The notes: generated from the letters alone by a model not told the origin. DNA of 64,000 bases from an uncultured Chloroflexia bacterium (GCA_963778645.1 CAVZVH010000001.1:67697-131696), one strand, 5' to 3'. Positions 29,669-48,773 are shown, numbered from the stretch's first letter. Program-made: numbers and translations.

Positions 29669-30562
29669 TTAGCGGCCCTTCGCGTACCCCGTCGCGGTCA
29701 GCTTGTCCCAGAGGGTCCCGGCATTGTTGTTCTGGATGTGATCCATCATGTAGCCCTGCCCGACGTCGACCGGCCCGAAGGCGTCGTCGAACCGGACGCG
29801 CGCGATCGTCTCCTCGCGCGTCCAGCCCTTCGCGACCGCGTCTGCGACGGCGGCCTTCCACTGATGCAGGACGGACCGCTGCGTATCGACGTAGGCGATC
29901 GTCTGGACGGGACCGTGGCCCGGGATCAGGTGGTCGACGTCGAGCTGGCGGATCCGCTCGAGCGCATCCAGCCATTGGTCGACGTTCGAGGTCATCAGCC
30001 ACGTCTGGCACTCGGCGAAGATCGTGTCGCCGGTAAAGACGGCCCGCTCCTCGGGCACGTGCACCGCGAGCTGGCCGGGTGTGTGCCCCGGCGTGTGGAG
30101 CAGGTGAAAGGTGTGATCGCCGACGCGCAGCGTCAGGTCGCCCGTGAAGACCACCGTCCCCTTGTTCGGGTCCTGGTAGTAGACCTCGCGATCGGGAATC
30201 AGCGGCGCCGCCTCGGGGTCGTCGGTCGGGATCGCCTCGAGGGCATACGCGAACGGATCGAGGGCCGCATTCGGGTCCATGAAGTTGTCGTACAGCCCCT
30301 GGTGATTGACGACCGGCACGCCCTTGTACCAGTAGTTCCCGAAGATGTGATCGACGTGGTGCTCGGTGTTGATGAGGTAGCGGATCGGGCCGTGCGACTC
30401 CGCCTCCGCCCGCATCGCGACCGCCCGTGTCGGCAGCTGGGGCGTGTCGATGGCCACGACCCCATCGGCGGTCACGACGAAGCTCGGGTTGCACCCGCGG
30501 AGCTTGGTCGTCGTGTAGATGTTCGGCGTGACGCGTTCGAGGTCCAGGGTGGCAACCGCCAT
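29669..30562 (-). CDS. Metallo-beta-lactamase fold hydrolase (cyclase-like)
   Basis: IDTP, TEHHVDHIFGN, TPGHT, FTGDT and IPGHG. Confidence 0.88.
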   Translation of the reverse strand: MAVATLDLERVTPNIYTTTKLRGCNPSFVVTADGVVAIDTPQLPTRAVAMRAEAESHGPIRYLINTEHHVDHIFGNYWYKGVPVVNHQGLYDNFMDPNAALDPFAYALEAIPTDDPEAAPLIPDREVYYQDPNKGTVVFTGDLTLRVGDHTFHLLHTPGHTPGQLAVHVPEERAVFTGDTIFAECQTWLMTSNVDQWLDALERIRQLDVDHLIPGHGPVQTIAYVDTQRSVLHQWKAAVADAVAKGWTREETIARVRFDDAFGPVDVGQGYMMDHIQNNNAGTLWDKLTATGYAKGR

Positions 30563-30580
30563 GCGACGAGACTCCTCGGG

Positions 30581-31366
30581 CTACTGGGTCGCGGTGAGAC
30601 CGCCGTCGATCCCGAGGACCTGGCCGGTCACGAATGAGGCGGCGTCCGAGCACAGGAAGATGGCCGGTCCGACGAGGTCGCTGGTCTCGCCGACGCGGCC
30701 GAGCGGGATGCGGTTCACGATGCCGGCCTTGAAGGCCGGGTCCTCGAGCAGCATCGCGACCTGCGGCGTGTCGACGAACGTCGGCATGATGGCGTTGACC
30801 CGGATCCCATGCTTCGCCCATTCGGTCGCCCATTGCCGGGTGAGCGAACTGATCGCTCCCTTCGCGGCCACATACGCGGAATAGCCGGCGTTGATCCCCA
30901 GGTTCGCGCGCACCGACGAGATGTTGAGGATCCGCCCGCCGTGACCCTGCGCGATGAGCTGACGGACGACGGCCTGGGTCGGCACGACCGTGCTTCGTAC
31001 GTTGAGCTCCATGATCCAGTCCCAGTCGGATCGGGGGTAGCCCTCGGCGGGATGGAGCGCCTTGCCGGCACCGCCGCCGACCGCATTGACGAGGATGTCG
31101 ATGCGACCGAACCGATCCACGGTCTCCCGGACCATCCGATCGCCGTCGGGCTCGCTGGTCACGTCCGCGACCACCGTGACGCCCTCGGATCCGGTCGCCT
31201 CCACGCGCTGGGTCGTCGCATCCAGGGTGTCGCGGGTCCGCCCGGCCACCGCGACGCGAGCACCCGCGCCAGCGAGGGCCACGGCCATGTCGGACCCGAT
31301 GCCCCCGCCGCCACCGGCGACGATGGCGACCAGCCCGTCGAGGCTGAAGATGTCGAGTTGGCCCAA
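30581..31366 (-). CDS. SDR oxidoreductase (gluconate 5-dehydrogenase/KduD-like)
   Basis: VAGGGGGIG, YVAAKG, VNAIMPT and GQVLGIDGG; TTG start at 31366 with AGAGGAG RBS. Confidence 0.88.
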   Translation of the reverse strand: MGQLDIFSLDGLVAIVAGGGGGIGSDMAVALAGAGARVAVAGRTRDTLDATTQRVEATGSEGVTVVADVTSEPDGDRMVRETVDRFGRIDILVNAVGGGAGKALHPAEGYPRSDWDWIMELNVRSTVVPTQAVVRQLIAQGHGGRILNISSVRANLGINAGYSAYVAAKGAISSLTRQWATEWAKHGIRVNAIMPTFVDTPQVAMLLEDPAFKAGIVNRIPLGRVGETSDLVGPAIFLCSDAASFVTGQVLGIDGGLTATQ

Positions 31367-31451
31367 TCCGTGCTCCTCTGCGCCTTCATCGATTATCGAA
31401 CGTTGGGCTGGCCGATGCACGAGCACGCGGCAGGATCGGCCCGTTCGGTCG

Positions 31452-31470
31452 TACCATAGAAAACGGTTGC
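31452..31470 (+). promoter_or_regulatory. -10 box (TACCAT) followed by a LacI-type operator GAAAACGGTTGC
   Basis: TACCAT 31452-31457; 31459-31470 fits the LacI consensus GnAAnCGnTTnC. A LacI gene lies in the downstream operon. Confidence 0.6.
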
Positions 31471-31505
31471 TGTCGCGACGAACACACGAGTCCGGAGTGA
31501 GTGAG

Positions 31506-32453
31506 ATGGCGCTGAACCTGGACGGTCTGATCCCGGCCACCGTGCTCCCGATGGCGGCCGACGGCAGCATCGACGAACCGGCCCTGCGCTCGTACATCGC
31601 GTGGATCGTCGAGCAGGGGCCGGTGGCGCTGGCGATCAATGTCGACACCGGCGAAGGGCCTCATCTCACCCACGACGAGAGGGTCCGGATCCTGCAGATC
31701 GTCGACGACGTCACTGACGTTCCGATCGTCGCCGGGCTCGCCGGACCGTCGACCGATGCGGCAGTCCGCCAGGCCGCGGAGTTCAAGGCAGCCGGCGCCG
31801 ACGCGCTCCTCGTCTTCCCGATCCCGGCGTACCTGAGCGAGCCGCTCGACGTGCGGGTCCCGGTGCGCTACCACGAGGCCATCGCCGAGGTTGGCCTGCC
31901 GCTCATCCTGTTCCAACTGCAACCCGCACTCGCCGGTCTGAACTTCGAGCCCGAGACGTTGCGGGCGATGGCCGAGGTCGACGGCGTCATCGCCATCAAG
32001 GAAGCGTCGTTCGATGCTCGGCGGTTCGTCGATACCGCGAACCTCCTCGCCGAGCTGCCCCGGCCGATCACGCTGCTGACCGGCAACGACAACTTCATCC
32101 TCGAGTCGTTCATGCTCGGGGCGACCGGCGCGCTCATCGGTTTCGGCGCGGTGATGACCCGCGAGCAGGTCCAGATGATCGAAGCGTGGCAGGCCGGCCG
32201 GATCGACGAGGCCCGGGCGCTCGGCAAGCGGGTCCAGCGGCTCGCCGACGTCGTGTTCGCGAAGCCCGTCGGCGACTACCGCGTGCGCCTCAAGGAGTGC
32301 CTGCGACTGCTGGGCGTCCTCGACGCGGCCCATGTCCGGCGCCCGTTGATGCCGATCAGCGAAGACGAGCGGGCGTACCTCGTCTGGGTCCTCTCGGAAG
32401 TCGGGCTGCTGTCCGGTGCGCCCGCCGCATCCCCCGCGTTCGCGCGACCCTAA
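31506..32453 (+). CDS. DapA/NanA-like class I aldolase family protein (non-canonical active site)
   Basis: GLIPATVLP, NVDTGEG, GADALLVFP, IAIKEAS (Schiff-base Lys) and LLTGND. Confidence 0.85.
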   Translation: MALNLDGLIPATVLPMAADGSIDEPALRSYIAWIVEQGPVALAINVDTGEGPHLTHDERVRILQIVDDVTDVPIVAGLAGPSTDAAVRQAAEFKAAGADALLVFPIPAYLSEPLDVRVPVRYHEAIAEVGLPLILFQLQPALAGLNFEPETLRAMAEVDGVIAIKEASFDARRFVDTANLLAELPRPITLLTGNDNFILESFMLGATGALIGFGAVMTREQVQMIEAWQAGRIDEARALGKRVQRLADVVFAKPVGDYRVRLKECLRLLGVLDAAHVRRPLMPISEDERAYLVWVLSEVGLLSGAPAASPAFARP

Positions 32454-32476
32454 CCACCGAGTCGGAGGGAGGAGCC

Positions 32477-34090
32477 ATGGCCACCGAGCCCGCAGATGTC
32501 CTGGTCATCGGTGCGGGCGCGTCCGGCGGCGTCGTGGCCCTTCGGCTCGCCCAGGCCGGGTTCGGCGTCGTCTGCCTCGAGCAGGGTGGGTGGCTCGACC
32601 GCGCGGACTATCCGGGCAACAAGCTCGACTGGGAGCTGAAGGCACGCAAAGACTGGGCGACCAGCCCGAACATCCGCAGGCTCACGCAGGACTACCCGAT
32701 CGTCGAGGACGACACCCCGGTCTCGCCGCTCATGTACAACGCGGTCGGCGGCTCCACGATCATCTTCGCCGGCGCCTGGCCTCGGGCACTCCCCTCGGAC
32801 TTCCGTGTCCGCTCGCTCGACGGCGTCGCCGACGACTGGCCGATCGACTACTTCGAGCTGCTGCCGTACTTCTACCGGACCGACCGAGACTTCGGCGTGT
32901 CCGGCCTGCCGGGCGATCCGGCCTATCCGCCGGACACCGAGGACGCGCCGATGCCGCCGCTCCCGATCGGGTCGGCCGGGCTGAAGGTGGCCCGAGCGCA
33001 AACGAAGCTGGGCTGGCACTGGTGGCCGGAGTTCAACTCGATCAACTCGACGCCGTATGACGGCCGTCGACCGTGCGTCCAGCGGAGCACCTGCCAGTCG
33101 GGCTGCAACGAGGGTGCCAAGGCGTCGACCGACCTGACCCACTGGCCGAAGGCGCTCGCCCTGGGCGCGCGACTCGTGACGGGCGCACGCGTTCGCCGGA
33201 TCGAGACCGACGCACGAGGCCTCGCGACCGGCGCGACCTGGATCGACCAGGACGGCGGCGAACACTACGAACCGGCCAAGGTGGTCGTCGTCGCGGCCAA
33301 CGCCATCGGCACTCCCCGGCTGCTGCTGCTCTCGGCGAGCCCGAAGCACCCCGACGGGTTGGCGAACTCGTCCGGCCTCGTCGGGAAGCGGCTGATGATG
33401 CATCCCTTCGCCAACGTCGCCGGCCTGTTCGAGGAGCCGCTGATGAGCTGGCAGGGCCAGTTCGGCGACCTCATCGAGTCGCTCGAGTTCTACGAGACCG
33501 ACGAGAAGCGTGGCTTCGTCCGTGGCGCCCGATGGGGCCTGGCCCCGACCGGCGGGCCGATCAACACCGCACTCCCGAGCCGGGCCGGCGAGCAGGCCTG
33601 GGGCCGCGAGCACCACACGCATGTCAAGACCCATCTCGGCCACGGCGCGAACTGGGGTCTCTTCGCCGAGGACCTGCCCGACGAGGCGAACCAGGTCACG
33701 ATCGCACCGACGGTCACCGACTCGTCCGGCATCCCGGCGCCCGAGGTCCACTACCGGATGTCCGACAATTCGCGCCGGATGCTCGATTTCCACATCGAAC
33801 GGGCGAAGGAGTCGATGGACGCCGCAGGCGCCTACAAGGTCGAGGTCGACCGCCTGATGCGCTACTCGGGCTGGCATCTGCTGGGTACCGCCCGGATGGG
33901 CGACGACCCGGAGACGTCGGTGCTCGACCGCTGGAACCGCGCCCACGACGTCCCGAACCTGTACGTCGTCGACGGCTCGTGCTTCGTTACGTCGACGGGC
34001 GTGAACCCGACGTCGACGATCGTCGCGATCGCCCTGCGAGCGGCCGATCACATGATCGAGACGCGTTTCGAGCAGCAGGTCCCGGCATGA
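32477..34090 (+). CDS. GMC family FAD oxidoreductase
   Basis: VIGAGASG, VGGSTIIF, Cys-rich CVQRSTCQSGC, NAIGTPRLLL, HLLGTARMG and NLYVVDGS..NPTSTI. Confidence 0.93.
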   Translation: MATEPADVLVIGAGASGGVVALRLAQAGFGVVCLEQGGWLDRADYPGNKLDWELKARKDWATSPNIRRLTQDYPIVEDDTPVSPLMYNAVGGSTIIFAGAWPRALPSDFRVRSLDGVADDWPIDYFELLPYFYRTDRDFGVSGLPGDPAYPPDTEDAPMPPLPIGSAGLKVARAQTKLGWHWWPEFNSINSTPYDGRRPCVQRSTCQSGCNEGAKASTDLTHWPKALALGARLVTGARVRRIETDARGLATGATWIDQDGGEHYEPAKVVVVAANAIGTPRLLLLSASPKHPDGLANSSGLVGKRLMMHPFANVAGLFEEPLMSWQGQFGDLIESLEFYETDEKRGFVRGARWGLAPTGGPINTALPSRAGEQAWGREHHTHVKTHLGHGANWGLFAEDLPDEANQVTIAPTVTDSSGIPAPEVHYRMSDNSRRMLDFHIERAKESMDAAGAYKVEVDRLMRYSGWHLLGTARMGDDPETSVLDRWNRAHDVPNLYVVDGSCFVTSTGVNPTSTIVAIALRAADHMIETRFEQQVPA

Positions 34091-34650
34091 CCGCCGGATC
34101 GAGGCCCTCCACGACACCGGTCGACCCGCTCGCGAGCCTCGACGCCGCGGAGCGGGCGACGCTCAGCGCGATCGCCGACCGGCTCATCCCCGCCGCGCAC
34201 GGGATGCCGTCGGCGGCCGATGTCCTCGGCGACGATCGGCTGCGGTTCGTCCTGAACGCCCGGCCTGACCTCATCGAGCCGCTTCGAGGGGCGCTCCGGC
34301 GCGAGCTCGGCGACGACGTCGGGGCGCGCCTCGATGCCCTCGGCCGGGACGAGCCGTCGACGCTCGGAGCGTTGCAGCTGGTGATCGTCGCCGGTTACTA
34401 CACCGACCGTCGGATCCGGGAGCTGATCGGGTACCCCGGGCAGATGGCAGTCGAGCTGCGGTCGTGGGAGTACCCGGCATATCTCGAGGAAGGACTGATC
34501 GACGCTGTGCTCGCTCGCGGGCCGGTATGGCGGGATCCGGCGACCGGGCAGCGGGCTGTCGCCACGGGCGCGCCGCGGACCTACGCGGAGCGCTGGGCGA
34601 CGGACGCTGGGTCGCCCGAAGGAGGACGAGATGGCCCCGATCGCACCTGA
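34087..34650 (+). CDS. Gluconate 2-dehydrogenase subunit 3-like partner of the GMC enzyme
   Basis: ERATLSAIADRLIP and GYYTD...LIGYPG patterns; ATGA-coupled to the GMC gene. Confidence 0.7.
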   Translation: MTAGSRPSTTPVDPLASLDAAERATLSAIADRLIPAAHGMPSAADVLGDDRLRFVLNARPDLIEPLRGALRRELGDDVGARLDALGRDEPSTLGALQLVIVAGYYTDRRIRELIGYPGQMAVELRSWEYPAYLEEGLIDAVLARGPVWRDPATGQRAVATGAPRTYAERWATDAGSPEGGRDGPDRT

Positions 34651-36106
34651 GACGGAGTCTGCGGCACCGAGCTGGCTCGGGTCCTTCGTCGAGACGTGGG
34701 AACCGGGCACGGGCGCGCCGATCGAGGACCGCGAGCCGGCGACCGGCCGACTCATCACGACCGTCGCCGGCAGCACCCCGGACGACGTCGCCCGCGCCGC
34801 CGCCCGCGCCGCCGAGGCGCAGCCTGCCTGGGCCGCGACGAACTACCAGGAGCGGGCGCGCGTCCTGCGCCGGGCGGCCGAGATCTACGACGCCAACCGC
34901 GACGAGTTCGGCAGGTGGACGCAGCGCGAGACCGGAGCCTCCCACAGCAAGATGCACCATGAGTCGAACTTCGCCTACCACGAGATCCTCAACGCGGCGA
35001 CCCTCCCGTCACAGGCCTACGGCTCGCTCATGCCATCGGCGGTCAGGGGCCGGCTCTCGATGGTCCGACGGGTGCCCGCCGGGCTCATCGGTGCCATCAC
35101 GCCGTGGAACTCGCCATCGGTGTTGGGCATGCGCGTGGTCGCGCCGGCGTTGGCGCTCGGCAATGCGGTCGTGCTCAAGCCGGACCCGCAGACACCCGTC
35201 GTCGGCGGCGCGATGTTCGCCGCGGTCTTCCGGGAGGCGGGCTTGCCGGAAGGCCTGCTCCAGGTCGTGATCGGCGGCGCCGACGTCGGCGAGGCCCTGG
35301 TGACCGACCCCAACGTCTCGGTCGTCTCGTTCACCGGGTCGACCACCGTCGGCCGGCGGGTCGGCCAGTTGGCCGGGGGCCTGCTCAAGAAGGTCTCGCT
35401 GGAGCTCGGTGGCAACAACGCGTTCATCGTCCTCGACGACGCCGACCTCGACGCGGCTACGGCGGCTGGTGCCTTCTCCGCGTTCCAGTTCCAGGGCCAG
35501 GTCTGCTTCGCGGCCGGCCGGCACCTCGTCCACCACAGCCTCGCCGACTCGTACATCTCGGCTCTCACCGAGAAGGCGAGGGGCCTGCGGACGGGCGATC
35601 CGTATCGCGAGGATGTCCAGATGGGCCCGATCGTCAACGAGAAGCAGATCGCCCGCGTCGATGGGATCGTCCAGCGCTCGATCTCGGCTGGGGCCGTCGT
35701 GAACGAGGGCGCCACCTTCGAGGGTCTGTTCTACCGACCGACGGTCCTCACCTCGGTCACCCCGGACATGCCGGCGTTCACCGACGAGATCTTCGGCCCG
35801 GTCGCGCCGATCACGGTCTTCGAGACCGACGAGGACGCGATCGCCCTGGCCAACGCGAGCAGCTACGGGCTCGTGGCGTCGATCTACACGCGCTCGATCT
35901 CGCGCGGGCTCGCGTTCGCCGACCGGATGCGCACCGGCATGGTCCACATCAACGACGGCACGCTCAACGACGAGGCGATCATCCCGTTCGGCGGGATGGG
36001 CGACTCCGGCAATGGCAGCCGGTACGGCGGCGAGGCCAGTCTCGACACGTTCACCGAGTGGCAGTGGGTCACGGTGCGCGACGAACAGCCGACCTTCCCG
36101 TTCTGA
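34631..36106 (+). CDS. Aldehyde dehydrogenase (benzaldehyde dehydrogenase-like)
   Basis: ITPWN, LKPDPQTP, FTGST, LELGGN, QGQVC, EIFGPV and PFGGMGDSGNG. Confidence 0.92.
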   Translation: MAPIAPETESAAPSWLGSFVETWEPGTGAPIEDREPATGRLITTVAGSTPDDVARAAARAAEAQPAWAATNYQERARVLRRAAEIYDANRDEFGRWTQRETGASHSKMHHESNFAYHEILNAATLPSQAYGSLMPSAVRGRLSMVRRVPAGLIGAITPWNSPSVLGMRVVAPALALGNAVVLKPDPQTPVVGGAMFAAVFREAGLPEGLLQVVIGGADVGEALVTDPNVSVVSFTGSTTVGRRVGQLAGGLLKKVSLELGGNNAFIVLDDADLDAATAAGAFSAFQFQGQVCFAAGRHLVHHSLADSYISALTEKARGLRTGDPYREDVQMGPIVNEKQIARVDGIVQRSISAGAVVNEGATFEGLFYRPTVLTSVTPDMPAFTDEIFGPVAPITVFETDEDAIALANASSYGLVASIYTRSISRGLAFADRMRTGMVHINDGTLNDEAIIPFGGMGDSGNGSRYGGEASLDTFTEWQWVTVRDEQPTFPF

Positions 36107-36123
36107 TCGACGGGATCGCACGC

Positions 36124-37194
36124 GTGACGTCCATCACCGACGTGGCTAGGCTGGCCGGGGTCTCGACGGCCACGGTCTCGCGGGTCGTGTCGGCGGCGCC
36201 ATACGCGGTCAGCGCCGCGACCCGCGCGCGCGTGCTCGACGCGGCGCGCACCCTCGATTACGTCCCCAACGCCCTCGCGCGCGGGATGCTCAAGAGCCAC
36301 ATCCCGGTCGTCGGCGTGGTCGTCCACGACATCACGGACCCGTACTTCTCGGAGGTCGTGCGTGGCGTCGAAGACGCGGCCGCCGTCGGCGGATCGCTCG
36401 TCATCACGTGCAGCTCCGATCGGATCGCGGAGCGAGAGAACTCGTACGTCCGCCTGCTCCGCTCGATGCGCGTGGCGACCCTCATCTTCGCGGGCAGCGG
36501 GCTCGACGATCCGGCGGCCAACGCCGAGATGCGCAGGCATGTCGCCGCGATGCGCGGCTACGGGGCGGCCGTCGTCCACTTGTCGCCGCACGCCTTCGGG
36601 CAGGCAGAGGTCGGCGTCGATAACGTCGGCGGCATCGCCAGCGTCGTGGCCGAGCTCGTCCGGCTGGGGCACCGGCAGATCGCGTTCCTGGCTGGCCCGA
36701 CCTCGCTGTACGTCGCGCGCCAGCGACTGGAGGGGTACCGGCGCGGCCTGGCCGAGGCCGACATCCCCTTCGATGAGGCCCTGGTCGTGAGCACCGGGTT
36801 CAACCGCGACGGCGGCGCGCTCGGCATCGACACCTTGCTGGCCGGTGTAGCGCCGTTCACGGCGGTCTGCTCGGCCAATGACCTGCTCGCGCTGGGCGCG
36901 CTGCAGCGCCTGGCGGAGCTCGGCATCAAGGTGCCGCGAGAGGTCTCGGTCGCGGGCTTCGACGACATCCAGACCGCGGCGATGGCGACGCCCGGGCTGT
37001 CGACCGTCCGGCTGCCGCTCCACGAGATCGGCCGCCGCGGCTTCGCGTTCGCCGAACGACAGCTGGCCGGTGCCCGACCGCGTCGGGAGGTGCTCCCGAC
37101 CGAGTTGGTCATGCGCGAGTCGACCGCCCAGGCGCCGGCCTCGGCGCTGCCCCGAGCCGCAGCCCATCGGCGCGCGGCGGCAGGGGCCGCCTGA
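36124..37194 (+). CDS. LacI family transcriptional regulator
   Basis: SITDVARLAGVSTATVSRV, LDYVPNALAR, NDLLALG and VAGFDD; GTG start at 36124. Confidence 0.93.
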   Translation: MTSITDVARLAGVSTATVSRVVSAAPYAVSAATRARVLDAARTLDYVPNALARGMLKSHIPVVGVVVHDITDPYFSEVVRGVEDAAAVGGSLVITCSSDRIAERENSYVRLLRSMRVATLIFAGSGLDDPAANAEMRRHVAAMRGYGAAVVHLSPHAFGQAEVGVDNVGGIASVVAELVRLGHRQIAFLAGPTSLYVARQRLEGYRRGLAEADIPFDEALVVSTGFNRDGGALGIDTLLAGVAPFTAVCSANDLLALGALQRLAELGIKVPREVSVAGFDDIQTAAMATPGLSTVRLPLHEIGRRGFAFAERQLAGARPRREVLPTELVMRESTAQAPASALPRAAAHRRAAAGAA

Positions 37195-37949
37195 TGGGTG
37201 GGGCACTAGCCGACCGGGTGGTGCTGGTGACCGGCAGCAGCCGGGGGATCGGGGCCGAGGTCGCGGTCAAGGCGGCGACCGAAGGCGCGGTGGTGGCGGT
37301 CCACTACCACGGGTCTGGCGACGCCGCCGAGGAGACCCTCGCGCGCGTGCGCCTCGCTGGCGCGGACGGTGCGACCTTCGCCGCCGACGTCGCCGACGGC
37401 CGCCAGGCGGAGGACCTCGTCGAGGCGGTCATCGGTCGGTTCGGACGGGTGGACGGGCTCGTGAACAATGCGGGCCGGACACTGGTCGGTCCGTTCCTCG
37501 AGGTCGCGCCGGCCGAGTGGGACGAGGTCATCCGCACCGACCTGACGGCCGCTTTTCACACGTGCCGCGCCGTGCTGCCCTCGATGGTCGAGCGCGGCAG
37601 CGGGGGCATCGTCAACATCGCGTCGCGCCTCGGCCAGGTCGGTGTCGCGGAGACCGCTGCCTACAGTGCGGCCAAGGCGGGGCTCATCGGCCTGACACGA
37701 GCCCTGGCTCGCGAGTTCGGGCCCCTCGGGATCCGCGTGAACGCGGTCGCGCCGGGCATGACGATCACGGGGATGACGACCGAGCTCGCCGACAGCGAGG
37801 AGGGCCGACGGCGGCTGCGCGACATGCCGCTCGGGCGGTTCGGTCGCGCGGATGAGGTCGCGGACGCCGTGATCTTCCTGCTGTCCGATGCCTCGTCGCT
37901 GTTCCTTGGTCAGACCCTCAACCCGAATGCCGGAGGCTACATGCCGTGA
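37194..37949 (+). CDS. SDR oxidoreductase (FabG-like)
   Basis: TGSSRGIG, NNAG, YSAAKAG and VNAVAPG. Confidence 0.92.
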   Translation: MGGALADRVVLVTGSSRGIGAEVAVKAATEGAVVAVHYHGSGDAAEETLARVRLAGADGATFAADVADGRQAEDLVEAVIGRFGRVDGLVNNAGRTLVGPFLEVAPAEWDEVIRTDLTAAFHTCRAVLPSMVERGSGGIVNIASRLGQVGVAETAAYSAAKAGLIGLTRALAREFGPLGIRVNAVAPGMTITGMTTELADSEEGRRRLRDMPLGRFGRADEVADAVIFLLSDASSLFLGQTLNPNAGGYMP

Positions 37950-39505
37950 CCACGATCGTCGACGTTCGGGAGGCGGTCGGTCTGGTCCGCGACGGTAGCA
38001 CCGTGGTCATCGGCGGTTCCGGGGCGGGCCACGCGCTGCCGCAGCGCTTCATCGACGAGCTGGCGACGGCCTTTGCCGAGGAGGGCCGGCCGCGCGACCT
38101 GACCACGGTCCGGGTCGTGGGCATCGGCGACTTCGCGGACCGTGGCTTCTCGCAGCTCGGCCTGTCCGGGCTCATGAGGCGGACGATCGGCAGCAACATC
38201 GGGAACGAGCCCCGTCTTGGCGCGCTCGTCGAGGCCAACGAGATCGAGTCCTATTCGTTCCCCCAGGGCGTGCTGTCCCAGCTCATGCGCGAGATCGCCG
38301 CCGGGCGGCCCGGCGTCCTCACCCAGGTCGGGCTCGGCACGTACGTGGATCCGCGTCAGACCGGCGGCAAGCAAAACGCGAGGACGACCGAGGATCTCGT
38401 CGAGGTCGTCACGATCCGGGGCCGGGAATGGTTGCTCTTCCACGCCTTCCCCATCGATGTCGCCGTCATCCGGGGCACGAGTGCCGACGAGGACGGCAAT
38501 CTGACGATGGAGGGCGAGGCGATCCAGGGCGAGATGCTGGCCATGGCGATGGCCGCCCGGAACAGTGGCGGCATCGTCATCGCCCAGGTCCGACAACTCG
38601 CCACGCGAGGGAGCGTTCGGATGCGGGACGTGAAGGTGCCGGGTGCCCTGATCGACCACGTGTACATCGACCCGGACCAGTGGCAGACGTACATCACGCA
38701 GGACTCGCCCTACTACGCCGGGGCGCTGCGCCGACCGGTCCGGCCGGAACCGCCCTTGCCGCTCGACGTCCGCAAGATCATCGCGCGCCGCTCATTGCTG
38801 GAGTTCCCGCCCGGCGCCATCTGCAATCTCGGCTTCGGGATCAGTCAGCTCATCGGCCGGGTCGCCTGGGAGGAGGGGATCACCGACCAACTGGTGCTGA
38901 CCGTCGAGCAGGGCATCTTCGGTGGCGTCCCGGTGGCCGGCAACGAGGGGGGAGCCGGGTTCAACTACCAGGCCATGATCGACCAGCCCTACATGTTCGA
39001 CTTCTACGACGGCGGCGGGCTGGACATCGCGAGCCTGTCGTTCGCCGAGGTGGACGCGGAGGGCAACGTGAACGTCCACGCCTTCGAGGGGCGGGTCCGC
39101 GGCCCGGGCGGGTTCCCCAACATCAGCGCCCGGACCGCCAAGATCAACTTCGTCGGCACCCTGACCGCGCGCGGTCTCGAGATCGATATCGACGGCGGGG
39201 TTCGGATCGCCAGCGAAGGCCGCCTCGGCAAGTTCGTGCCGGAGGTGCGCGAGATCTCGTTCAACGGTCGGCTGGCCCGCGAGCGCGGGCAACAGGTGCG
39301 CTACATCACCGAGCGTGCCGTCTTCGCGCTGGAGGACGACGGCCTCGTCCTGATCGAGGTCGCGCCCGGCATCGATGTCGAGCGCGACGTCCTGGGCCAG
39401 ATGGGCTTCCGGCCGCGTGTCGCCGATGACCTGCGGACTATGGACCCGCGGCTGTATTCGACGGGACCGATGGGGCTCGCGGCGGACTTCGCGGGCGCCC
39501 GGTGA
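37946..39505 (+). CDS. Family I CoA-transferase, fused alpha/beta (YdiF/propionate CoA-transferase type)
   Basis: [28 protein letters not shown] (catalytic Glu), GPGGFPNI and YITERAVF. Confidence 0.9.
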
Positions 39506-40283
39506 GCGGCCTGATCGCACTCGAGCTCGGACGGGTCGCGCACCTCGAGCTGGTCAACCCGCCGCTGAACCTGGTCACGCGCGACCTGCTCGACGAGCTG
39601 GAAGCGGCGCTCGATGTGCTCGCGGCAGCCTCCCCGGGCGACGTCCGCGCGGTGGTCCTGAGCGGGCGCGGGCAGCGCGCGTTCTCCGCGGGATCGCACG
39701 TCGGCGAGTTCGAGGCCCAGCGCGGCCCCGGCGGCCGGCAGCGGCACGAGCTCGAGGCAGGCGTCGCGCGGCGCCTGGCCGAACTGCCGATGCCGACCAT
39801 CGCCGCGATCGAGGGCAACGCGCTCGGTGGCGGGCTGGAGCTCGCGCTGTGCTGCGACATCCGGATCGCGTCGGACCGTGCCCGGCTCGGCCTGCCGGAG
39901 GTGCGCCTGGCTGTCATCCCTGGCGCCGGAGGCACGCAGCGGCTCCCGCGGGTCGTGGGATCGGCCTGGGCGCGGGAGATGATCCTGACCGGGCGTGTGC
40001 TGACCGCGGCCGAGGCCGAGCGGATCGGCCTCGTCGCACGAGGTCGTGCCGGCTGGCGACGCCGTCGCGCGCGCCCAGGCCATCGGCGAGGAGATCGCCG
40101 CCCGTGGCCCGCTCGCCGTCCGCGAGGCAAAACGACTGATCGACCTCGCGACCGAGGTCGACCTGGACGCCGGCCTGGCGGCCGAGTTGGACGCGTCGGA
40201 ACGGATCTTCGCCAGCGAGGACATGCTCGAGGGCGCTCAGGCGTTTCTCGGCAAGCGACGACCCGGAGTATCGCGGCCGTTGA
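39502..40283 (+). CDS. Enoyl-CoA hydratase/isomerase (apparent frameshifts near 40037 and 40265)
   Basis: [25 protein letters not shown] and [21 protein letters not shown]; the C-terminus continues in another frame ([16 protein letters not shown]). Confidence 0.88.
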
Positions 40284-40307
40284 GGCCGACCTGGAGGTGG
40301 TTTGTCC

Positions 40308-41351
40308 ATGAGCGACGTCGGACGGTTCGGGGTCTTCCTGCCGTCGTACATCTGGGAGGGCGACGGTCCGGAGCGCGCGCGCGGGATCAAGGCGTTCGCG
40401 CGGACGGTGGAGGAGCTCGGGTTCGACTCGCTGTTCATCACCGACCACCTGCTGGCGGCCAGGCGGTTCTATTCGGTCTCGTTCCTGGAGCCCCTCGCGG
40501 CGCTCGCCGTCGCGGCCGGCGTGACGGAGCGGGTCCGCCTGGGCACCTCGATCCTGATCATGCCGCTGCGCAACCCCGTGCTGCTGGCCAAGGAGCTGGC
40601 GACGCTCCAGTTCCTGTCCGAGAACCGGATGATCCTCGGTGCCGGCGTGGGCTGGAACGAGGCCGAGTACGAGGCGGTCGGGGTCCACAAGTCGGAGCGC
40701 GGCAAGCGCACCGACGAGATGCTGGACATCCTGCTGCCGCTGCTGGAAGGGGAAAGGGTCACCTACCACGGCCGGTACTACTCGGTCGACGACCTGTTCA
40801 TCGAGCCGATCGCGTCGCAGCGCCCCGAGGTGTGGATCGGCGGTGGCTCGCAGCTGGCCGACGAGAAGTCCCCGGACCTGCCCCGGTTCGTGGAGGCGGT
40901 CAAGGCCCGCGTCCTGCGAACCGATGGCTGGATCCCGCGCCCGACCTGCCCGCCCGACGACATCGCCCGCGACTGGGTCGAGCTCCAGGCCTACTACCGC
41001 GAGCACGGTCGCGACCCGCGCGAGTGCGTCGTCGCCCACGAGAACTTCCTGCACCTCGTCCTGACCAACGACCCGGTGAAGGCGCGGGAGGAACAGCACC
41101 GCGCGTTCCTCAAGGTGATGAGCGCCGAGCGCGGCGAGCACTACCTCGAATCGGTCTATCTGTTCGGGACGCCTGACGAGGTGATCGCGTCGCTCCAGGC
41201 CCGGGTGGATGCCGGGGTGGAGTACTTCGTCCTGCACACGATGACGCCGGATCCCGCCCAGCTCCAGCACTGGGTCGACGAGATCATCCCCAACATCACG
41301 TTCCCCGCGACGGCTGGGCCGGTCCGGCGGGTGTCCCCGGCGTTGCGGTGA
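40308..41351 (+). CDS. LLM class flavin-dependent oxidoreductase (possibly F420-dependent)
   Basis: [42 protein letters not shown] and PEVWIGG. Confidence 0.88.
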
Positions 41352-42208
41352 CCCAGCGGGTCGGCCTCATCGGGAAGCCGCTGAAGCGACGCCACTCGCA
41401 GGTGATGCACGACGCCGCGTTCGACGCGGCCGGGATCGACGCGCGCTACGTCCTGCTCGAGCTCGAGCCGGATGCCGTCGAGGAGGCGGTGCGCGAGGCG
41501 CGCGGGCCCGACTGGCTCGGTCTCGGCGTGACCGCCCCGTACAAGCGGCTGGTCGCGGGCCTCGTCGACGAGGTCGAGGCCGACGCCGGCGACGATCGGT
41601 GCGGTCAACAACGTCGTCGCGGACCGAGACCGGCGGCCTCGTCGGGTTCAACACGGACGCGCCCGGCTTCCAGGTCGGCGTGGAGCTTGCGATGGGCCGG
41701 CCGCTCGCTGGAGCCGAGGTCGTCGTCGCCGGGGCCGGCGGCGCCGCCCACGCCGTCGTGTTCGCCTGTCTTCGTGCCGGTGCTCGGCTGGTGACCGTCG
41801 GGAATCGGACGCCCGCGTCCGCGACCACGCTCGTGGAACGCTTCGTCGACGTCGGGACGGGGTCTCGGTCGGCCGTCGCGCTCGCGGACCCCGCCTTCGA
41901 GACCGCGCTGCGGTCCGCGGACCTGGCGGTCAATGCCACGACGGTCGGGATGCTCGATCCGGGCGCGACCATCCCGGTCGACGCTGCTGCCGGCGACGGC
42001 GACCGTCTTCGACCTCGTCTACGTGCCGCCGGAGACGCCGTTGCTCCAGGCGGCGCGGGCGCGTGGCCTGCGCGCGGCGAACGGGTCGGAGATGCTGATC
42101 GCCCAGGCCGCCATCGCGTTCGAGCGCTGGACCGGCGTCGCCGGCATGGCGGACGTCATGCGCGTGGCCGTCGCGCCGCTGCTCGCCGACGCTGCGGCGC
42201 GCGCCTGA
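41348..42208 (+). CDS. aroE: Shikimate/quinate dehydrogenase-like protein (apparent frameshifts near 41590 and 41985)
   Basis: MHDAAF, VTAPYK, GAVNN, GFNTD, GAGGAA, VNAT, DLVY.P and NGSEMLIAQAAIAFERWTG across three frames. Confidence 0.8.
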
Positions 42209-42212
42209 CCCG

Positions 42213-43041
42213 ATGCGGCTCGCCACGATCGTCGGTCCGCATGGCCCCGGGGTGGGGATCGTCCGCGACGACCGTGTCCTCGAGCTCGAGCCGTTCGTCG
42301 ACATGCGCAGGTTCGCCATGACCCCCGACGGCATCGACTGGGCGCGCGACTGGGCCAGGTCCCGACCGAACAACGCCTGGTTGCCGCTCGCCGACGTGGC
42401 CCTCGGCCCGGCCGTGCCAGACCCGGGCGCGATCTACACCGTCGGCCTCAACTACGACGGCCCGGGTGCGGCCGGGCGCCCGGATGCGCCGCTCATCTAC
42501 GGCAAGGCGGCGAGCGCCGTCGCCGAGCATGGGGCGACGCTGTCGTGGGACCGGACACTGACCGCCAACGTGGACCCGGAGGTCGAGCTGGGCGTGGTCA
42601 TCGGCGCGACCGCCGCGAACGTCGGTGTCGAGGCCGCGATGGACCACGTCTTCGGCTTCACGTGCATGAACGACGTCTCGTCGCGCGACCCGTGGCTCGA
42701 CGGCGACCAGTGGCTTCTGGGCAAGTCGATGCCCGGCTTCTGCCCTGTCGGGCCGTGGATCGTCACCGCCGACGAGCTCGACCCGGCGGACCTGCGTCTC
42801 GGCTGCTCGATCGGTGGCGTCGCCATCCAGGACGGCACGACCGCGGACATGCGGTTCGCGAGTCGCCGAGATCGTGTCCTTCCTGAGTCATCACGCCACG
42901 CTGCGCCCCGGAGACCTGATCGCGACGGGGACCCCGACCCGCCTGGCCGCGCCCCTGGGACCGGACCGGCATCTCGAATCGGGCGACGTCGTGACGGTCT
43001 GGATCGAACGCATCGGGGAGCTCACCACCACCATCGCCTGA
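42213..43041 (+). CDS. Fumarylacetoacetate hydrolase family protein (apparent frameshift near 42860)
   Basis: VGLNY, DPEVELGVVIG, NDVSSRD, GKSMPGFCPVGP and LRPGDLIATGTP. Confidence 0.88.
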
Positions 43042-43062
43042 CCGCAGCCAGGAGGAGGCACC

Positions 43063-43851
43063 ATGAAACCGCCCACCGTGTTCCTCGGCGAGATGACCAG
43101 TCCGGAGGTGGAGGCCTTCCTGCGCGAGCACCAGACCGTCATCGTGCCGACCGGCTCGACCGAGCAGCACGGCCCGCACGGCCCGCTCCTGACCGATGCC
43201 CTGATCCCGCAGGAGGTGGCCCGTCGCGTCGCGCCCCGGGTAGGCGCCGTGGTCGCGCCGACGATCAACTACGCGCTGTCCTATCCGCACGTCGGCTTCA
43301 CGGGCGTGGTGCACATCCGGATCCCGACGTTCATGACGCTCATCGAGGACCTGTGCGCCTCGCTCGCGTCGATCGGCTTCCGGCGGATCGTCTTCCTGAA
43401 CGGGCACTACGACAACACGTACGCGATCGCCTACGCCTGCGCGACGGCCGCTGAGCGGATGCCGGCCGGCACGCGCGCCTTCCCGATCAACTACTGGGAC
43501 GGCATGACGGCCACCGAGGCGGCCGAGTACTTCGGCCCCGCGACCGGGCTGCACGCGAACCGTGCGGAGACGTCGGCGGTGCTCGCGATCGACCCGGCCC
43601 TGGTGGACCTGGATCGCGCGAACGCCGAGATGCCGCCGTTCCCCGAGGTCACGAGTCCGGCCCCGGTCCATACCGCCTTCTTCTTCTCGGCGCCCGGATC
43701 GGTCCATCGTGCGACGCGCTCCGGGACCTGGGGCGACGCGCGCGAGGCGACGGTCGAATTCGGCGAGCGTTACCTCGAAGTCGTGACCGAGGCGACGATC
43801 CGCATGGTCGACGACATCGAGCGGACGTTCGAGGCGATGCCACCGCGCTGA
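43063..43851 (+). CDS. Creatininase family amidohydrolase
   Basis: PTGSTEQHGPH, TD, NGHYDN and HANRAETS. Confidence 0.9.
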   Translation: MKPPTVFLGEMTSPEVEAFLREHQTVIVPTGSTEQHGPHGPLLTDALIPQEVARRVAPRVGAVVAPTINYALSYPHVGFTGVVHIRIPTFMTLIEDLCASLASIGFRRIVFLNGHYDNTYAIAYACATAAERMPAGTRAFPINYWDGMTATEAAEYFGPATGLHANRAETSAVLAIDPALVDLDRANAEMPPFPEVTSPAPVHTAFFFSAPGSVHRATRSGTWGDAREATVEFGERYLEVVTEATIRMVDDIERTFEAMPPR

Positions 43852-44998: not shown

Positions 44999-45014
44999 CG
45001 GGCGACCGTGACGG

Positions 45015-45092
45015 TCACGCGTCGCGTGCGCCGCTGCCGTCGAGGGCGAGACCGAGGTGGCGGCTGGTCGGCTCGCGGTCGATCGCGTCCAT
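45015..45092 (-). pseudogene. 25-codon mini-ORF, probable internally deleted ROK kinase remnant
   Basis: Manual translation MDAIDREPTSRHLGLALDGSGARDA*; TGATG-coupled to the permease; SRHLGL matches the start of the ROK kinase at 17459 (MTASRHLGLDLGG). Confidence 0.45.
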
Positions 45093-48745: not shown

Positions 48746-48773
48746 AACGGACGACCGATTTTCGGGTCGGTGG

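Follow-up and report, generated by a model that had tools for sequence, protein, structure and literature searches.

A predicted twelve-gene, LacI-controlled catabolic operon of soil Limnocylindrales (Chloroflexota) that may serve the oxygenase-free breakdown of a polyhydroxy compound

In Mycolicibacterium austroafricanum and Actinomycetospora chiangmaiensis, a gene cluster encodes the large and small subunits of MpdB, together with MpdC and CoA activation (PMC7176365). Small partner subunits also occur in the membrane-bound fructose dehydrogenase (FdhSCL; FDH) and FAD-glucose dehydrogenase (FAD-GDH) complexes. A further enzyme, gluconate 2-dehydrogenase, is linked with the LacI-family regulator PtxS. 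The myo-inositol route of Thermotoga maritima runs through the IolG and IolM dehydrogenases, the creatininase-family ring hydrolase IolN and IolO, followed by KDG kinase and Eda. In the non-phosphorylative L-rhamnose/L-fucose route (LRA5 SDR/LRA6 FAH; YagE), FAH- and DHDPS-family enzymes liberate pyruvate from 2-keto-3-deoxy or 2,4-diketo sugar acids, while in the β-oxidation of alicyclic acids (BadK/BadH/BadI for cyclohexanecarboxyl-CoA; perillate) the acid is converted into a CoA ester, hydrated by a crotonase and oxidised by an SDR. No characterised pathway onto which the gene set described here maps was found, which bears out the initial annotation in proposing an uncharacterised pathway.

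The gene set is located in the genome of an uncultured soil Limnocylindrales (Chloroflexota), represented by a metagenome-assembled genome (MAG), within a window of 64 kb (the whole stretch of DNA that was analysed). Twelve plus-strand genes, identified by Pfam and NCBIfam family calls, are tightly packed between positions 31506 and 43851 (Table 1), successive genes either overlapping by 1-20 nt or standing no more than 23 nt apart. The sequence predicts a single operon of translationally coupled genes with its own LacI repressor and an operator-overlapped promoter. The nearly contiguous run, its internal LacI gene, the divergent SDR-MBL pair and the gene families named in the initial annotation were all confirmed, but the run comprises twelve rather than eleven genes, as the dehydrogenase small subunit had been overlooked and the second SDR left unnamed. 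Dioxygenase families were absent from the run genes and the scanned flanking genes, in agreement with the reported lack of a ring-cleavage dioxygenase.

Table 1. Features of the predicted operon and of the divergent gene pair (positions in the window)
Feature	Position	Strand	Evidence
Metallo-beta-lactamase-fold (MBL) hydrolase, second of divergent pair	29669-30562	-	Pfam Lactamase_B, E 2.5e-21
SDR, gluconate-5-dehydrogenase/KduD-like, divergent from run	30581-31366	-	Pfam adh_short_C2
-10-like hexamer and LacI-type operator AGAAAACGGTTGCT	TACCAT 31452-31457; palindrome 31458-31471	+	Operator directly abuts hexamer
DHDPS/NAL-family class I lyase (aldolase or dehydratase), first run gene	31506-32453	+	Pfam DHDPS, E 1.4e-44
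FDH/FAD-GDH-type flavoprotein dehydrogenase (GMC fold), large subunit	32477-34090	+	PDB matches, full length
Dehydrogenase small subunit, gluconate 2-dehydrogenase subunit 3-like, 187 aa	34087-34650	+	Start overlaps GMC stop as ATGA; GC3 coding signal in this frame
NAD(P)-dependent aldehyde dehydrogenase (ALDH)	34631-36106	+	Pfam Aldedh, E 1e-149
LacI-family repressor, inside run	36124-37194	+	Pfam LacI HTH and Peripla_BP_3
FabG-like SDR (3-hydroxy/3-oxoacyl type)	37194-37949	+	Pfam adh_short, E 3e-58
Fused family I CoA-transferase, YdiF/FadX type	37946-39505	+	PDB 2ahu, E 2.9e-137
Crotonase-type enoyl-CoA hydratase	39502-40283	+	Pfam ECH_1; two extra bases read through
Luciferase-like (LLM) oxidoreductase, F420-dependent TIGR03619 family	40308-41351	+	195.9 bits; cut-off 166.9
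AroE-family dehydrogenase paralogue	41348-42208	+	Pfam Shikimate_dh_N and Shikimate_DH, different frames
FAH-family hydrolase/decarboxylase, HpaG/LRA6-like	42213-43041	+	Pfam FAA_hydrolase, match ends at frame change
Creatininase-family binuclear-metal hydrolase, terminal run gene	43063-43851	+	Pfam Creatininase, E 2e-63

The large GMC subunit shares full-length homology with the FDH and FAD-GDH large subunits, at E-values of the order of 1e-69 to 1e-71 (fructose dehydrogenase: 1.6e-71; FAD-glucose dehydrogenase: 5e-69). In the alignment, its residues C200, C206 and C210 match three cysteines in the CCGNNNCMPIC stretch of FDH, a region that binds the [3Fe-4S] cluster in the FAD-GDH structure; the remaining cysteine of the stretch, one of the CC pair, corresponds to Val. 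The small subunit, encoded in 64/67 related loci, gave no match in Pfam and PDB sequence searches, but the atlas clusters closest to it carry the name gluconate 2-dehydrogenase subunit 3 family, at a score of 0.95. Unlike in the FDH and FAD-GDH systems, a cytochrome c subunit gene is lacking here and no twin-arginine motif is visible on the small subunit; the two-subunit dehydrogenase is probably cytoplasmic. The closest NCBIfam models of the aldehyde dehydrogenase are those of succinate-semialdehyde, KGSA and glyceraldehyde dehydrogenases, each below its cut-off. In gene make-up, this block resembles the Mpd cluster, where a GMC-type large subunit (~550 aa), its small partner (~200 aa) and an aldehyde dehydrogenase (~500 aa) are likewise co-encoded and the next step converts the resulting hydroxy-acid into its CoA ester. 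The postulated sequence of alcohol, aldehyde, acid and CoA ester has a characterised precedent in two-subunit MpdB, MpdC and a CoA ligase (PMC7176365). The Mpd cluster, however, combines the CoA ligase with a ThDP lyase and a GntR regulator, where the present locus encodes a YdiF-type transferase, crotonase, LLM, AroE-like and FAH proteins and a LacI regulator.

The CoA-transferase, conserved at 87-95% amino acid identity across 80 species, provides the strongest single match in the run, to the E. coli acyl-CoA:acetate CoA-transferase YdiF (PDB 2ahu; residues 4-512), and scores 379 bits against the NCBIfam FadX model, below its cut-off. In E. coli, ydiF adjoins the AroE paralogue ydiB and aroD, and here too the transferase gene is accompanied by one for an AroE-family paralogue, although the E. 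coli ydi genes themselves have no settled physiological role and the AroE-like protein scores higher against AroE (185 bits) than against YdiB (102 bits). Its intact ortholog (L009:4971-5828) scores 203 bits against TIGR00507 (cut-off: 200.2); the Lys/Asp dyad and NRT motif are retained, with Arg at the first Ser of HSxSP, and a second, housekeeping aroE is located on contig C19. The genome furthermore encodes CofD (313.8 bits, above cut-off), suggesting that F420 is available to the LLM enzyme.

Two of the core enzymes recall the L-rhamnose/L-fucose route, which likewise employs SDRs and an ALDH. The DHDPS-family lyase scores 140 bits against the NCBIfam DapA model (cut-off: 206) and has YagE KDG-type aldolases among its PDB matches; the lysine of its IKEAS motif presumably occupies the Schiff-base position of the family, as judged from general family features rather than from an alignment. 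The intact FAH ortholog matches HpaG-type proteins and L-2,4-diketo-3-deoxyrhamnonate hydrolase in PDB (E 1e-36 to 1e-41). The LRA6 model, however, reaches 141.8 against a cut-off of 500, and the usual sugar-acid dehydratase and lactonase are missing. The crotonase (intact ortholog: L009:3115-3894, 259 aa) and the FabG-like SDR, found in 76/76 related loci and closest to the FabG and acetoacetyl-CoA reductase models of NCBIfam, would follow the order of steps in alicyclic-acid β-oxidation. Unlike the BadK/BadH/BadI route, the locus encodes a single crotonase, putatively a plain hydratase by its two glutamates (in GGGLELA and LPEV, assumed by eye, without alignment, to be the catalytic positions), and lacks an acyl-CoA dehydrogenase and a BadI-type ring hydrolase, with BadH scoring 170 against a cut-off of 431.

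The terminal creatininase-family protein, encoded in 62/64 related loci, remains below the cut-offs for creatininase (133.6/235), MftE (107.9/172) and IolN (90.7/245). When it is aligned with relatives of 40-65% identity, the Glu, His and Asp residues that we take to be the metal and catalytic positions of creatininase do not vary. Next after one homolog, 73% identical, comes a family III CoA-transferase, a non-homologous enzyme, which ties this type of hydrolase to CoA activation. The creatininase-family hydrolase occurs alongside dehydrogenases of sugar type, a TIM-barrel enzyme and a CUT2 importer, and in one variant also Eda and a KDG-type kinase. This combination resembles the T. maritima inositol route, with which O2-free ring opening via diketone hydrolysis would be the common logic. 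The low IolN score sets the two apart, and CoA steps are absent from the Thermotoga route. Furthermore, the GFO protein adjoining the run has its nearer relative in levoglucosan dehydrogenase, not in IolG, and the TIM barrel is neither IolE nor IolO.

This GFO gene accompanies a CUT2 sugar ABC importer operon on the opposite strand that ends 16 nt past the run, such that the statement that no transporter is present holds for the run itself but not for its surroundings. Importer and GFO genes are convergent with the run here and divergent in the related genome G049, and a NagA-type amidohydrolase gene also adjoins the run. Of the divergent pair, found in 36/56 related loci with sufficient flank, the SDR (TTG start at 31366, picked by Pfam register) best matches the NCBIfam models of gluconate 5-dehydrogenase (223 bits) and KduD (206 bits) without reaching the cut-off of either, and the MBL hydrolase passes no NCBIfam cut-off.

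The operator, correctly placed by the initial annotation just past the -10 hexamer, is the sole match to AGAAAACGGTTGCT within the window against a chance expectation of 0.1, and the form AGnAAACGnTTaCT after TAnnAT is kept in about half of 46 aligned upstream regions. Of the 31 operator matches across 80 related loci, 30 fall in the 250 nt that precede the first run gene, and the operator precedes the first operon gene in both gene orders, DHDPS-first or GMC-first. The LacI gene is present in 64/72 related loci, with CytR, RbsR, CcpA and GalR as closest NCBIfam models, each below cut-off. A regulator of this kind had been considered unusual for such a set, which does not hold, since the GMC enzyme belongs with the sugar dehydrogenases (FDH/FAD-GDH type) and the neighbours and variants are also sugar-type; gluconate 2-dehydrogenase with PtxS offers a parallel.

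Among CoA-transferase-anchored loci with sufficient flank (80 species-level loci), every gene from the DHDPS to the creatininase gene occurs in 89-100%, arguing against a random mosaic, although all conserved loci stem from one class and their co-conservation thus partly reflects shared ancestry. Three modules can be distinguished, namely the two-subunit FDH/GDH-type flavoprotein dehydrogenase with ALDH; a core of DHDPS-like lyase, SDR, YdiF-type CoA-transferase, crotonase, F420-type LLM, AroE paralogue and FAH; and the terminal creatininase-family hydrolase. The gene set also occurs with the DHDPS gene relocated behind LacI, and one variant appends an SDR, Eda (over cut-off) and a KDG-type kinase. 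As a point against the reading favoured below, family f4 has a binding protein of the NMT1/TauT type which, like the creatininase and amidohydrolase neighbours, is equally characteristic of small anions and N-compounds.

Modularity is at the root of the alternative that survives best, yet which we still consider unlikely, that two or three unrelated small pathways (a polyol/sugar dehydrogenase-ALDH unit, a unit for short hydroxy-acids that depends on CoA, and a hydrolase acting alone) have been fused under one promoter and repressor and no single substrate passes through the twelve enzymes. In family f4 genomes, LacI and the core are found together with an ABC importer whose binding protein is of the NMT1 type, in the absence of GMC, ALDH and creatininase, L122 carries ALDH-LacI-creatininase without the core, L176 has DHDPS-CoA-transferase-crotonase-SDR in another setting, and creatininase homologs of 70-74% identity occur in other gene contexts. 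The run is as such not one indivisible pathway. Across 80 species, however, the blocks are adjacent and co-directional with stop/start overlaps and one operator, and they may also represent the upper, feeding part and the lower core of a single route, an importer substituting where the first block is missing.

We favour such a reading, in which an oxygenase-free route, in keeping with the oxygen-independent one first suggested, is the most economical for the operon. The first block would act on a polyol or sugar-like compound: a cytoplasmic two-subunit FAD/[3Fe-4S] dehydrogenase, related to the fructose and glucose dehydrogenases, and the ALDH would oxidise one of its hydroxyl or hydroxymethyl groups and so yield a keto or carboxyl compound, comparable to MpdB, its small subunit and MpdC on a diol. 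In the core, the NADP-type AroE paralogue, the F420-type LLM and the two SDRs may move hydroxyl and keto groups, the FAH-family enzyme and DHDPS-family lyase may cleave the 2,4-diketo or 2-keto-3-deoxy acids so formed, liberating pyruvate, and the leftover short hydroxy-acid could be converted by the YdiF-type transferase into a CoA ester for the crotonase and FabG-like SDR. The creatininase-family hydrolase would open a cyclic amide, lactone or cyclic diketone, and no step would involve an oxygenase. No run enzyme passes an equivalog cut-off naming a substrate, and the run lacks a sugar-acid dehydratase, a thiolase and a second (ring-opening) crotonase, so that any drawn pathway has gaps. The FDH/FAD-GDH-like GMC enzyme, the subunit 3-like small subunit, the gluconate-5-dehydrogenase/KduD-like SDR, the CUT2 importer, GFO and the Eda/KDG-type kinase variant give the locus a sugar-type character. 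The substrate probably belongs to the polyhydroxy compounds that derive from sugars or are alicyclic (cyclitol or hydroaromatic), the aromatic or N-heterocyclic compounds of the initial annotation being less likely than such a polyol or acid.

Degradation of an N-containing ring or amide (creatinine-, hydantoin- or pyrimidine-like, or a hydroxymethyl N-heterocycle), with the creatininase-family enzyme as ring opener, nevertheless finds some backing in the intact metal ligands of this enzyme, the NagA-type neighbour, the NMT1-type binding protein of f4 variants and the amidohydrolases and NMT1-type ABC systems that accompany distant homologs. We deem it improbable: f4 variants keep the core without a creatininase gene, the score against the creatininase model stays below its cut-off (133.6 against 235), the deaminase, amidase, molybdenum hydroxylase and flavin monooxygenase typical for N-heterocycle routes are absent from the run, and the regulator, GMC type, neighbours and Eda/KDG-kinase variant are all sugar-type.

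Cyclohexanecarboxyl-CoA is made from shikimate by steps resembling CoA-transferase, crotonase and SDR chemistry. The presence of these three families and of an AroE paralogue with an NADP-type NRT motif could accordingly point to biosynthesis, for example of a cyclitol or alicyclic acyl-CoA out of a shikimate-pathway intermediate. This is very doubtful given the LacI repressor, the adjacent or embedded ABC importers, the ALDH, FAH and aldolase-type cleavage and the Eda/KDG-kinase ending, all of which indicate breakdown, while synthase, ligase and tailoring genes are lacking.

Single extra bases interrupt the crotonase (40037, 40258), AroE-like (41586, 41619, 41984) and FAH (42859) genes. All six are missing from five related genomes, three of them short-read MAGs, in which each gene reads in a single frame; five were compared with these relatives alone, while 42859, the only break covered, is also missing from contigs of four short-read soil runs. 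Other few-contig or long-read MAGs of the genus are broken elsewhere and short-read MAGs are intact, the housekeeping aroE on C19 is likewise split, and the genome is 82% complete in 42 contigs. On these comparisons the breaks appear to be single-base long-read assembly insertions, and every gene is therefore to be taken as intact. That six breaks within 3 kb mark a decaying cluster with true pseudogenes is scarcely credible and largely refuted by this pattern.

Of the initial interpretation, the co-conservation, the lack of a known-pathway match and the oxidation logic stand, whereas the run is modular and its LacI regulator is not odd. The CoA-transferase ortholog is found in only 42 of 301 sampled genomes of the class (17/57 genera), marking the run as an accessory island. 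The run is thus an optional catabolic island of soil Limnocylindrales, and we hold it to be moderately probable that it constitutes, as a whole, a LacI-controlled operon with artefactual breaks whose three blocks would serve the oxygenase-free catabolism of a polyhydroxy compound.

At the high G+C content of the window (~70%) many spurious frames are open, and genes were therefore called from codon-position G+C and profile searches. Twelve plus-strand genes form a tight run beside a divergent minus-strand pair, with successive genes overlapping by 1-20 nt or lying no more than 23 nt apart. The initial annotation had described eleven genes here; the tight run is real, while the gene of a small protein had been overlooked and the second, FabG-like SDR (SDR2) left unnamed. 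At 29273-29656, just upstream of the end of the MBL gene, a plus-strand ORF of 127 aa shows coding-like GC3, no Pfam match and no homolog in related loci at the threshold used.

Genes of the run, its divergent pair and convergent neighbors, with presence in related loci (only loci with enough flank enter the denominators)
Feature	Coordinates	Strand	Basis or assignment	Presence
MBL-fold hydrolase	29669-30562	minus	Pfam/NCBIfam map	36/56 (as pair)
SDR of divergent pair	30581-31366	minus	Pfam/NCBIfam map	36/56 (as pair)
DHDPS-family lyase	31506-32453	plus	Pfam/NCBIfam map	56/57
GMC-fold dehydrogenase	32477-34090	plus	Pfam/NCBIfam map	56/58
Small protein (187 aa)	34087-34650	plus	predicted small subunit of GMC dehydrogenase	64/67
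ALDH	34631-36106	plus	Pfam/NCBIfam map	65/68
LacI	36124-37194	plus	Pfam/NCBIfam map	64/72
FabG-like SDR (SDR2)	37194-37949	plus	Pfam/NCBIfam map	76/76
Fused family I CoA-transferase	37946-39505	plus	Pfam/NCBIfam map	
Crotonase	39502-40283	plus	Pfam/NCBIfam map	74/74
Luciferase-like oxidoreductase (LLM)	40308-41351	plus	Pfam/NCBIfam map	74/74
AroE-family dehydrogenase	41348-42208	plus	Pfam/NCBIfam map	69/69
FAH-family enzyme	42213-43041	plus	Pfam/NCBIfam map	64/64
Creatininase-family hydrolase	43063-43851	plus	Pfam/NCBIfam map	62/64
NagA				43/62
CUT2 genes				52-53/61

With the CoA-transferase as query and one genome per species, 80 loci (L011-L090) were recovered at 87-95% amino acid identity. 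Nearly all are labeled Limnocylindrales, Limnocylindria, Chloroflexota or 'uncultured Chloroflexia', with four otherwise labeled (Thermomicrobiales, Anaerolineaceae, Acidimicrobiales); CSP1-4 and numerous soil MAGs from long reads are among them. The grouping of the run genes into one set in the initial annotation is borne out by the conservation of their neighborhood, as they stay linked and are near-universally present across these loci; since the loci were picked by the CoA-transferase and are mutual kin, the figures reflect stable linkage rather than independent events. When the class is sampled evenly, CoA-transferase orthologs (e-value: ≤ 1e-150) are present in 42/301 genomes and 17/57 genera, comprising 31/91 genomes in the family of the window and 10/103 in a second family, with none in the small-genome family or in a fourth family. 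G319, which belongs to these 42, is an unpublished genome, and its exclusion gives 41/300 genomes overall and 9/102 in the second family. As such, the operon represents an accessory island. The CoA-transferase is itself unusually conserved, the identity observed over the 80 species being accompanied by 79-89% in another family, whereas the FAH enzyme of the same operon shares only 52-83%. A homologous-protein search returned only near-identical Limnocylindrales proteins, and the nearest out-group homologs come from Nocardioides, from an Atribacterota MAG and, for P0124, from a JGI metagenome contig (139 kb).

The LacI protein contains the Pfam LacI HTH (58.9 bits) and Peripla_BP_3 (111.5 bits) domains. 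In the divergent intergenic region of 139 bp, TACCAT (31452-31457) is directly followed by AGAAAACGGTTGCT (31458-31471), an imperfect palindrome that was not picked up by the inverted-repeat finder. It has the properties of a LacI-family operator (a 14-16 bp palindrome with a central CG in a regulated promoter) and is the sole match in the 64 kb window to a pattern derived from relatives, with 0.1 expected by chance. TAnnAT followed by AGnAAACGnTTaCT occurs in about half of 46 aligned upstream regions. Of 31 operator matches over the 80 related loci, 30 are found no more than 250 nt upstream of the gene that opens the run, which is DHDPS in 20 cases and, in genomes with GMC first, GMC in ten. 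The operator thus tracks whichever gene is first, which is good evidence for a single LacI-controlled transcription unit with a predicted repressor-operator pair. A consensus scan for sigma-70 promoters and terminators gave nothing above chance.

Three-frame translation reveals two frame changes in the crotonase gene, three in the AroE-like gene and one in the FAH gene. In a multiple alignment with five intact relatives, six window-specific single extra bases are located within coding sequence (40037, 40258, 41586, 41619, 41984 and 42859), and every window-specific indel in the 39.5-43.1 kb region is a single inserted base, including the intergenic ones at 42209 and 43044. The source genome is a MAG of 4.02 Mb in 42 contigs (82% complete). 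All three genes are each in one frame in five related genomes, three of which are many-contig short-read MAGs, while four other few-contig MAGs of the genus have breaks at other positions, one within the CoA-transferase gene. Furthermore, base 42859, the exact FAH break, is missing in the Logan contigs of four out of four short-read soil runs, which cover the remaining five sites poorly or not at all, and the housekeeping aroE (contig C19 of the same genome, 172145-172952) is likewise split in two. All twelve genes were consequently treated as intact. The assembly seems to contain insertion-type errors in patches, and the same may apply where ORFs of one strand overlap at 24601-26731 and 58430-61671. 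In practice, frame breaks seen in long-read MAGs from this Limnocylindrales group should not be taken as gene decay.

Variant arrangements were read from larger stretches of other genera and families and from metagenome contigs found with creatininase homologs; contexts outside the Chloroflexota derive from metagenome contigs without known taxonomy.

Arrangements of the operon and its parts (CoAT, CoA-transferase; ECH, crotonase; Crea, creatininase-family gene; DHDPS', DHDPS paralog behind LacI)
Variant	Arrangement	Loci
1	gene order as in window	
2	GMC-small-ALDH-LacI-DHDPS'-SDR-CoAT-ECH-LLM-AroE-FAH-Crea	L101, L172, L173, L178, L179
3 (second family)	LacI-ABC ATPase-BPD_transp_1 permease-NMT1-type binding protein-DHDPS' (or convergent DHDPS)-SDR-CoAT-ECH-LLM-AroE-FAH	L171, L174, L175
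4	ALDH-LacI-Crea, 4-nt overlap, no core	L122
5	FAH-Crea-SDR-Eda-PfkB kinase	L121:1784-4321 (metagenome)
6	paralogous DHDPS-CoAT-ECH-SDR unit, 60/56/39/39% identity	L176

The DHDPS' of variant 2 is a paralog of ~53% identity. Variant 3 lacks the GMC, ALDH and creatininase genes, and an embedded importer (ATPase, BPD_transp_1 and NMT1/THI5-type binding protein; L171:4788-7538 and L174:5589-8393) takes the place of the GMC/ALDH block, which fits an upper 'feeder' block that would make intracellularly an acid that other lineages import. In variant 5, Eda (KDPG/KHG aldolase) scores above its NCBIfam cut-off and the PfkB kinase is KDG/KDGal-kinase-like; a molybdenum hydroxylase gene set is found farther along the same contig. 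The paralogous unit of variant 6 (region L176:4534-19461) is accompanied by an isocitrate/tartrate-type dehydrogenase, a D-serine-dehydratase-like gene and an Opp/Dpp-type ABC system, and is adjoined by a divergent LacI-SDR-MaoC-acyl-CoA dehydrogenase set. A separate Eda-KdgK...ECH-CoAT arrangement is found at L177. The variants define a stable core of DHDPS-like, SDR, CoA-transferase and crotonase genes (with those for LLM, AroE-like and FAH), with the creatininase gene and the GMC/small/ALDH block as add-ons. Downstream of the creatininase gene the content differs by genome (a further LacI with an ABC system, a molybdenum hydroxylase, a 2-hydroxyacid dehydrogenase or unrelated genes), and these genes were left out of the operon parts. 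Such modularity would also be in keeping with a regulatory fusion of separate small pathways, a real if unlikely possibility.

The GMC protein matches over its full length (residues 4-527) the large subunits of fructose dehydrogenase (FDH; e-value: 1.6e-71) and FAD-glucose dehydrogenase (FAD-GDH; e-value: 5e-69). Three cysteines of the FDH CCGNNNCMPIC stretch, which we take, from the structure of FAD-GDH, to provide the ligands of a [3Fe-4S] cluster, have aligned counterparts in its C200, C206 and C210. For the small protein there is neither a Pfam match (PF13618 included) nor a PDB sequence match even at an e-value of 10; it looks like atlas clusters of the 'gluconate 2-dehydrogenase subunit 3 family', and on this one resemblance it may be considered gluconate 2-dehydrogenase subunit 3-like. 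No twin-arginine motif is visible at its N-terminus and no cytochrome gene occurs among the twelve run genes or the divergent pair; the predicted enzyme is probably cytoplasmic. It shares the full-length large subunit and the three cysteines with the FDH, FAD-GDH and gluconate 2-dehydrogenase complexes, but differs from them in lacking a Tat signal and a cytochrome c subunit. By architecture alone, the large subunit, small subunit and ALDH of the run also resemble the diol oxidation module characterized in Actinomycetospora, which consists of the MPD dehydrogenase MpdB (~550 aa), a small subunit (~220 aa) and the ALDH MpdC (~500 aa) and is located next to a CoA ligase (PMC7176365).

The CoA-transferase is a close homolog of YdiF (2ahu; residues 4-512 against 15-525; e-value: 2.9e-137) with a fused alpha/beta architecture, and scores below the FadX equivalog cut-off (379 vs 750). 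By eye, the GGGLELA and LPEV motifs of the crotonase retain their glutamates in both the window and the intact ortholog at locus L009. These presumably represent the catalytic positions of the canonical GGG-x-E and P-E motifs, and their joint presence is taken to mark a true hydratase. The LLM scores above the cut-off of the F420-dependent family TIGR03619 (195.9 vs 166.9), and F420 biosynthesis is represented in the genome by CofD (313.8; cut-off: 257.45) on contig C25. The intact AroE-like ortholog (L009:4971-5828) reaches TIGR00507 (203; cut-off: 200.2). The AroE-like protein keeps the Lys/Asp dyad aligned with AroE (K of APYK, D of NSD/NTD) and the NADP-type NRT motif, while the first Ser of the HSxSP carboxylate-binding motif is replaced by Arg, and 5-ketofructose reductase is among its PDB relatives. 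It was rejected as the biosynthetic copy of the cell on the basis of this replacement, the second aroE on C19 and the lack of the operon in most genomes of the class. The FAH enzyme is equidistant from HpaG-type decarboxylase/isomerases and L-2,4-diketo-3-deoxyrhamnonate hydrolase. The DHDPS-family protein is below the DapA cut-off, has YagE-type KDG aldolases among its PDB matches and carries a lysine within an IKEAS motif, which we assume to be the expected Schiff-base residue. The identities DapA, NanA, KdgD, LRA6, BadH, true creatininase, MftE and IolN were all discarded, each falling below its curated cut-off.

For the creatininase-family hydrolase, the scores are 133.6 bits against the creatininase equivalog (TIGR04448; cut-off: 235) and 90.7 bits against the IolN 3-dehydro-scyllo-inosose hydrolase (NF041098; cut-off: 245), and the MftE cut-off is likewise not reached. 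Numbered as in alignment A1 of this protein, residues E35, H37, D46, H116, H165 and E170 do not vary within that alignment, and presumably correspond to the binuclear metal site and catalytic His of creatininase. Relatives from soil metagenomes with 40-50% identity are located directly behind CUT2 sugar importers, others belong to TIM-barrel-Crea-GFO-like-amidohydrolase units that also have a ROK regulator and an NMT1-type ABC system, and one relative with 73% identity is flanked by a TIM barrel on one side and a family III CoA-transferase on the other. As two unrelated CoA-transferase families adjoin this type of hydrolase, its product is suggested to be a carboxylic acid which is then activated. 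Homologs of 40-73% identity recur (L132:6694-10082, L158:4674-12881, L107, L112, L118, L120, L129 and L136) among xylose-isomerase-like TIM barrels, family III CoA-transferase, GFO-like, amidohydrolase and ROK genes and CUT2/NMT1-type ABC importers, and may form a sugar- or cyclitol-linked subfamily without a characterized member.

A convergent operon, ending 16 bases past the last stop of the run (neighboring stretch 43868-54758), encodes NagA, two CUT2 permeases, an ATPase, a binding protein, a TIM barrel protein and a Gfo/Idh/MocA dehydrogenase (GFO), beyond which ROK and phosphotriesterase-family (phospho-furanose-lactonase-like PTE) genes are found. The GFO scores 176 bits against levoglucosan dehydrogenase, below the cut-off, vs 111 bits against IolG. 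An inositol (iol) assignment of this operon was rejected on the latter comparison and on the TIM barrel scoring only 25.8 bits against IolE. In genome G049 (L171), GFO, TIM and CUT2/binding-protein genes are divergently located beside the core operon, suggesting that the core operon and the neighbor unit may be functionally linked.

The run is shown to constitute one conserved and modular operon, predicted to be under LacI control, in which all genes can be regarded as intact and none encodes an oxygenase. We consider it reasonably probable that it serves oxygenase-free catabolism of a sugar-derived or cyclitol/hydroaromatic substrate, a class favored by the sugar-type regulator, the FDH/GDH-type dehydrogenase, the gluconate-5-dehydrogenase/KduD-like SDR, the CUT2 and GFO neighbors and the Eda/KDG-kinase variant. 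The FDH-type flavoprotein, ALDH, AroE paralog, F420-LLM and SDRs would convert hydroxyls of a polyhydroxy compound to carbonyl or carboxyl groups, and the creatininase-family enzyme would open a cyclic bond. The FAH enzyme and DHDPS-type lyase would cleave diketo or 2-keto-3-deoxy acids to pyruvate and a fragment, which would be hydrated and oxidized as its CoA ester. This route has gaps, as the run encodes no sugar-acid dehydratase, thiolase or second crotonase. A more specific version, which we regard as doubtful, is an undescribed route for the O2-independent, hydrolytic opening of an inositol-, quinate- or shikimate-like compound (a carbocyclic polyol or hydroaromatic acid). The FDH-type flavoprotein, AroE paralog, F420-LLM and SDRs would here act in succession as dehydrogenases to yield diketones, followed by hydrolytic C-C cleavage by the creatininase-family and FAH enzymes, with one fragment processed as a CoA-thioester and pyruvate and KDG-type intermediates as end products. 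No literature was found usefully combining creatininase, CoA-transferase and shikimate dehydrogenase, nor any match for creatininase with inosose, and a 2026 paper on the Limnocylindria makes no mention of these enzymes.

A route for an N-containing compound, to which the creatininase, amidohydrolase and NMT1 associations could point, is quite improbable given the sugar-type features, and given that the creatininase gene is dispensable. A biosynthetic function is very unlikely. Gene decay is hardly credible and was rejected, the breaks being single extra bases without counterpart in five relatives and that at 42859 being contradicted by short reads.

Limnocylindrales of the CSP1-4 type are abundant, uncultured soil bacteria, the carbon sources of which are largely guessed from annotation. 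The oxygenase-free catabolic operon favored here is a well delimited unit with its own regulator, is near-unchanged in dozens of species and matches no textbook route. Its cleavage chemistry may proceed without an oxygenase, by means of an F420-type LLM and a creatininase-family hydrolase. With one repressor, one operator and twelve soluble, expressible enzymes, it provides a handle that could reveal a soil substrate of the Limnocylindrales.
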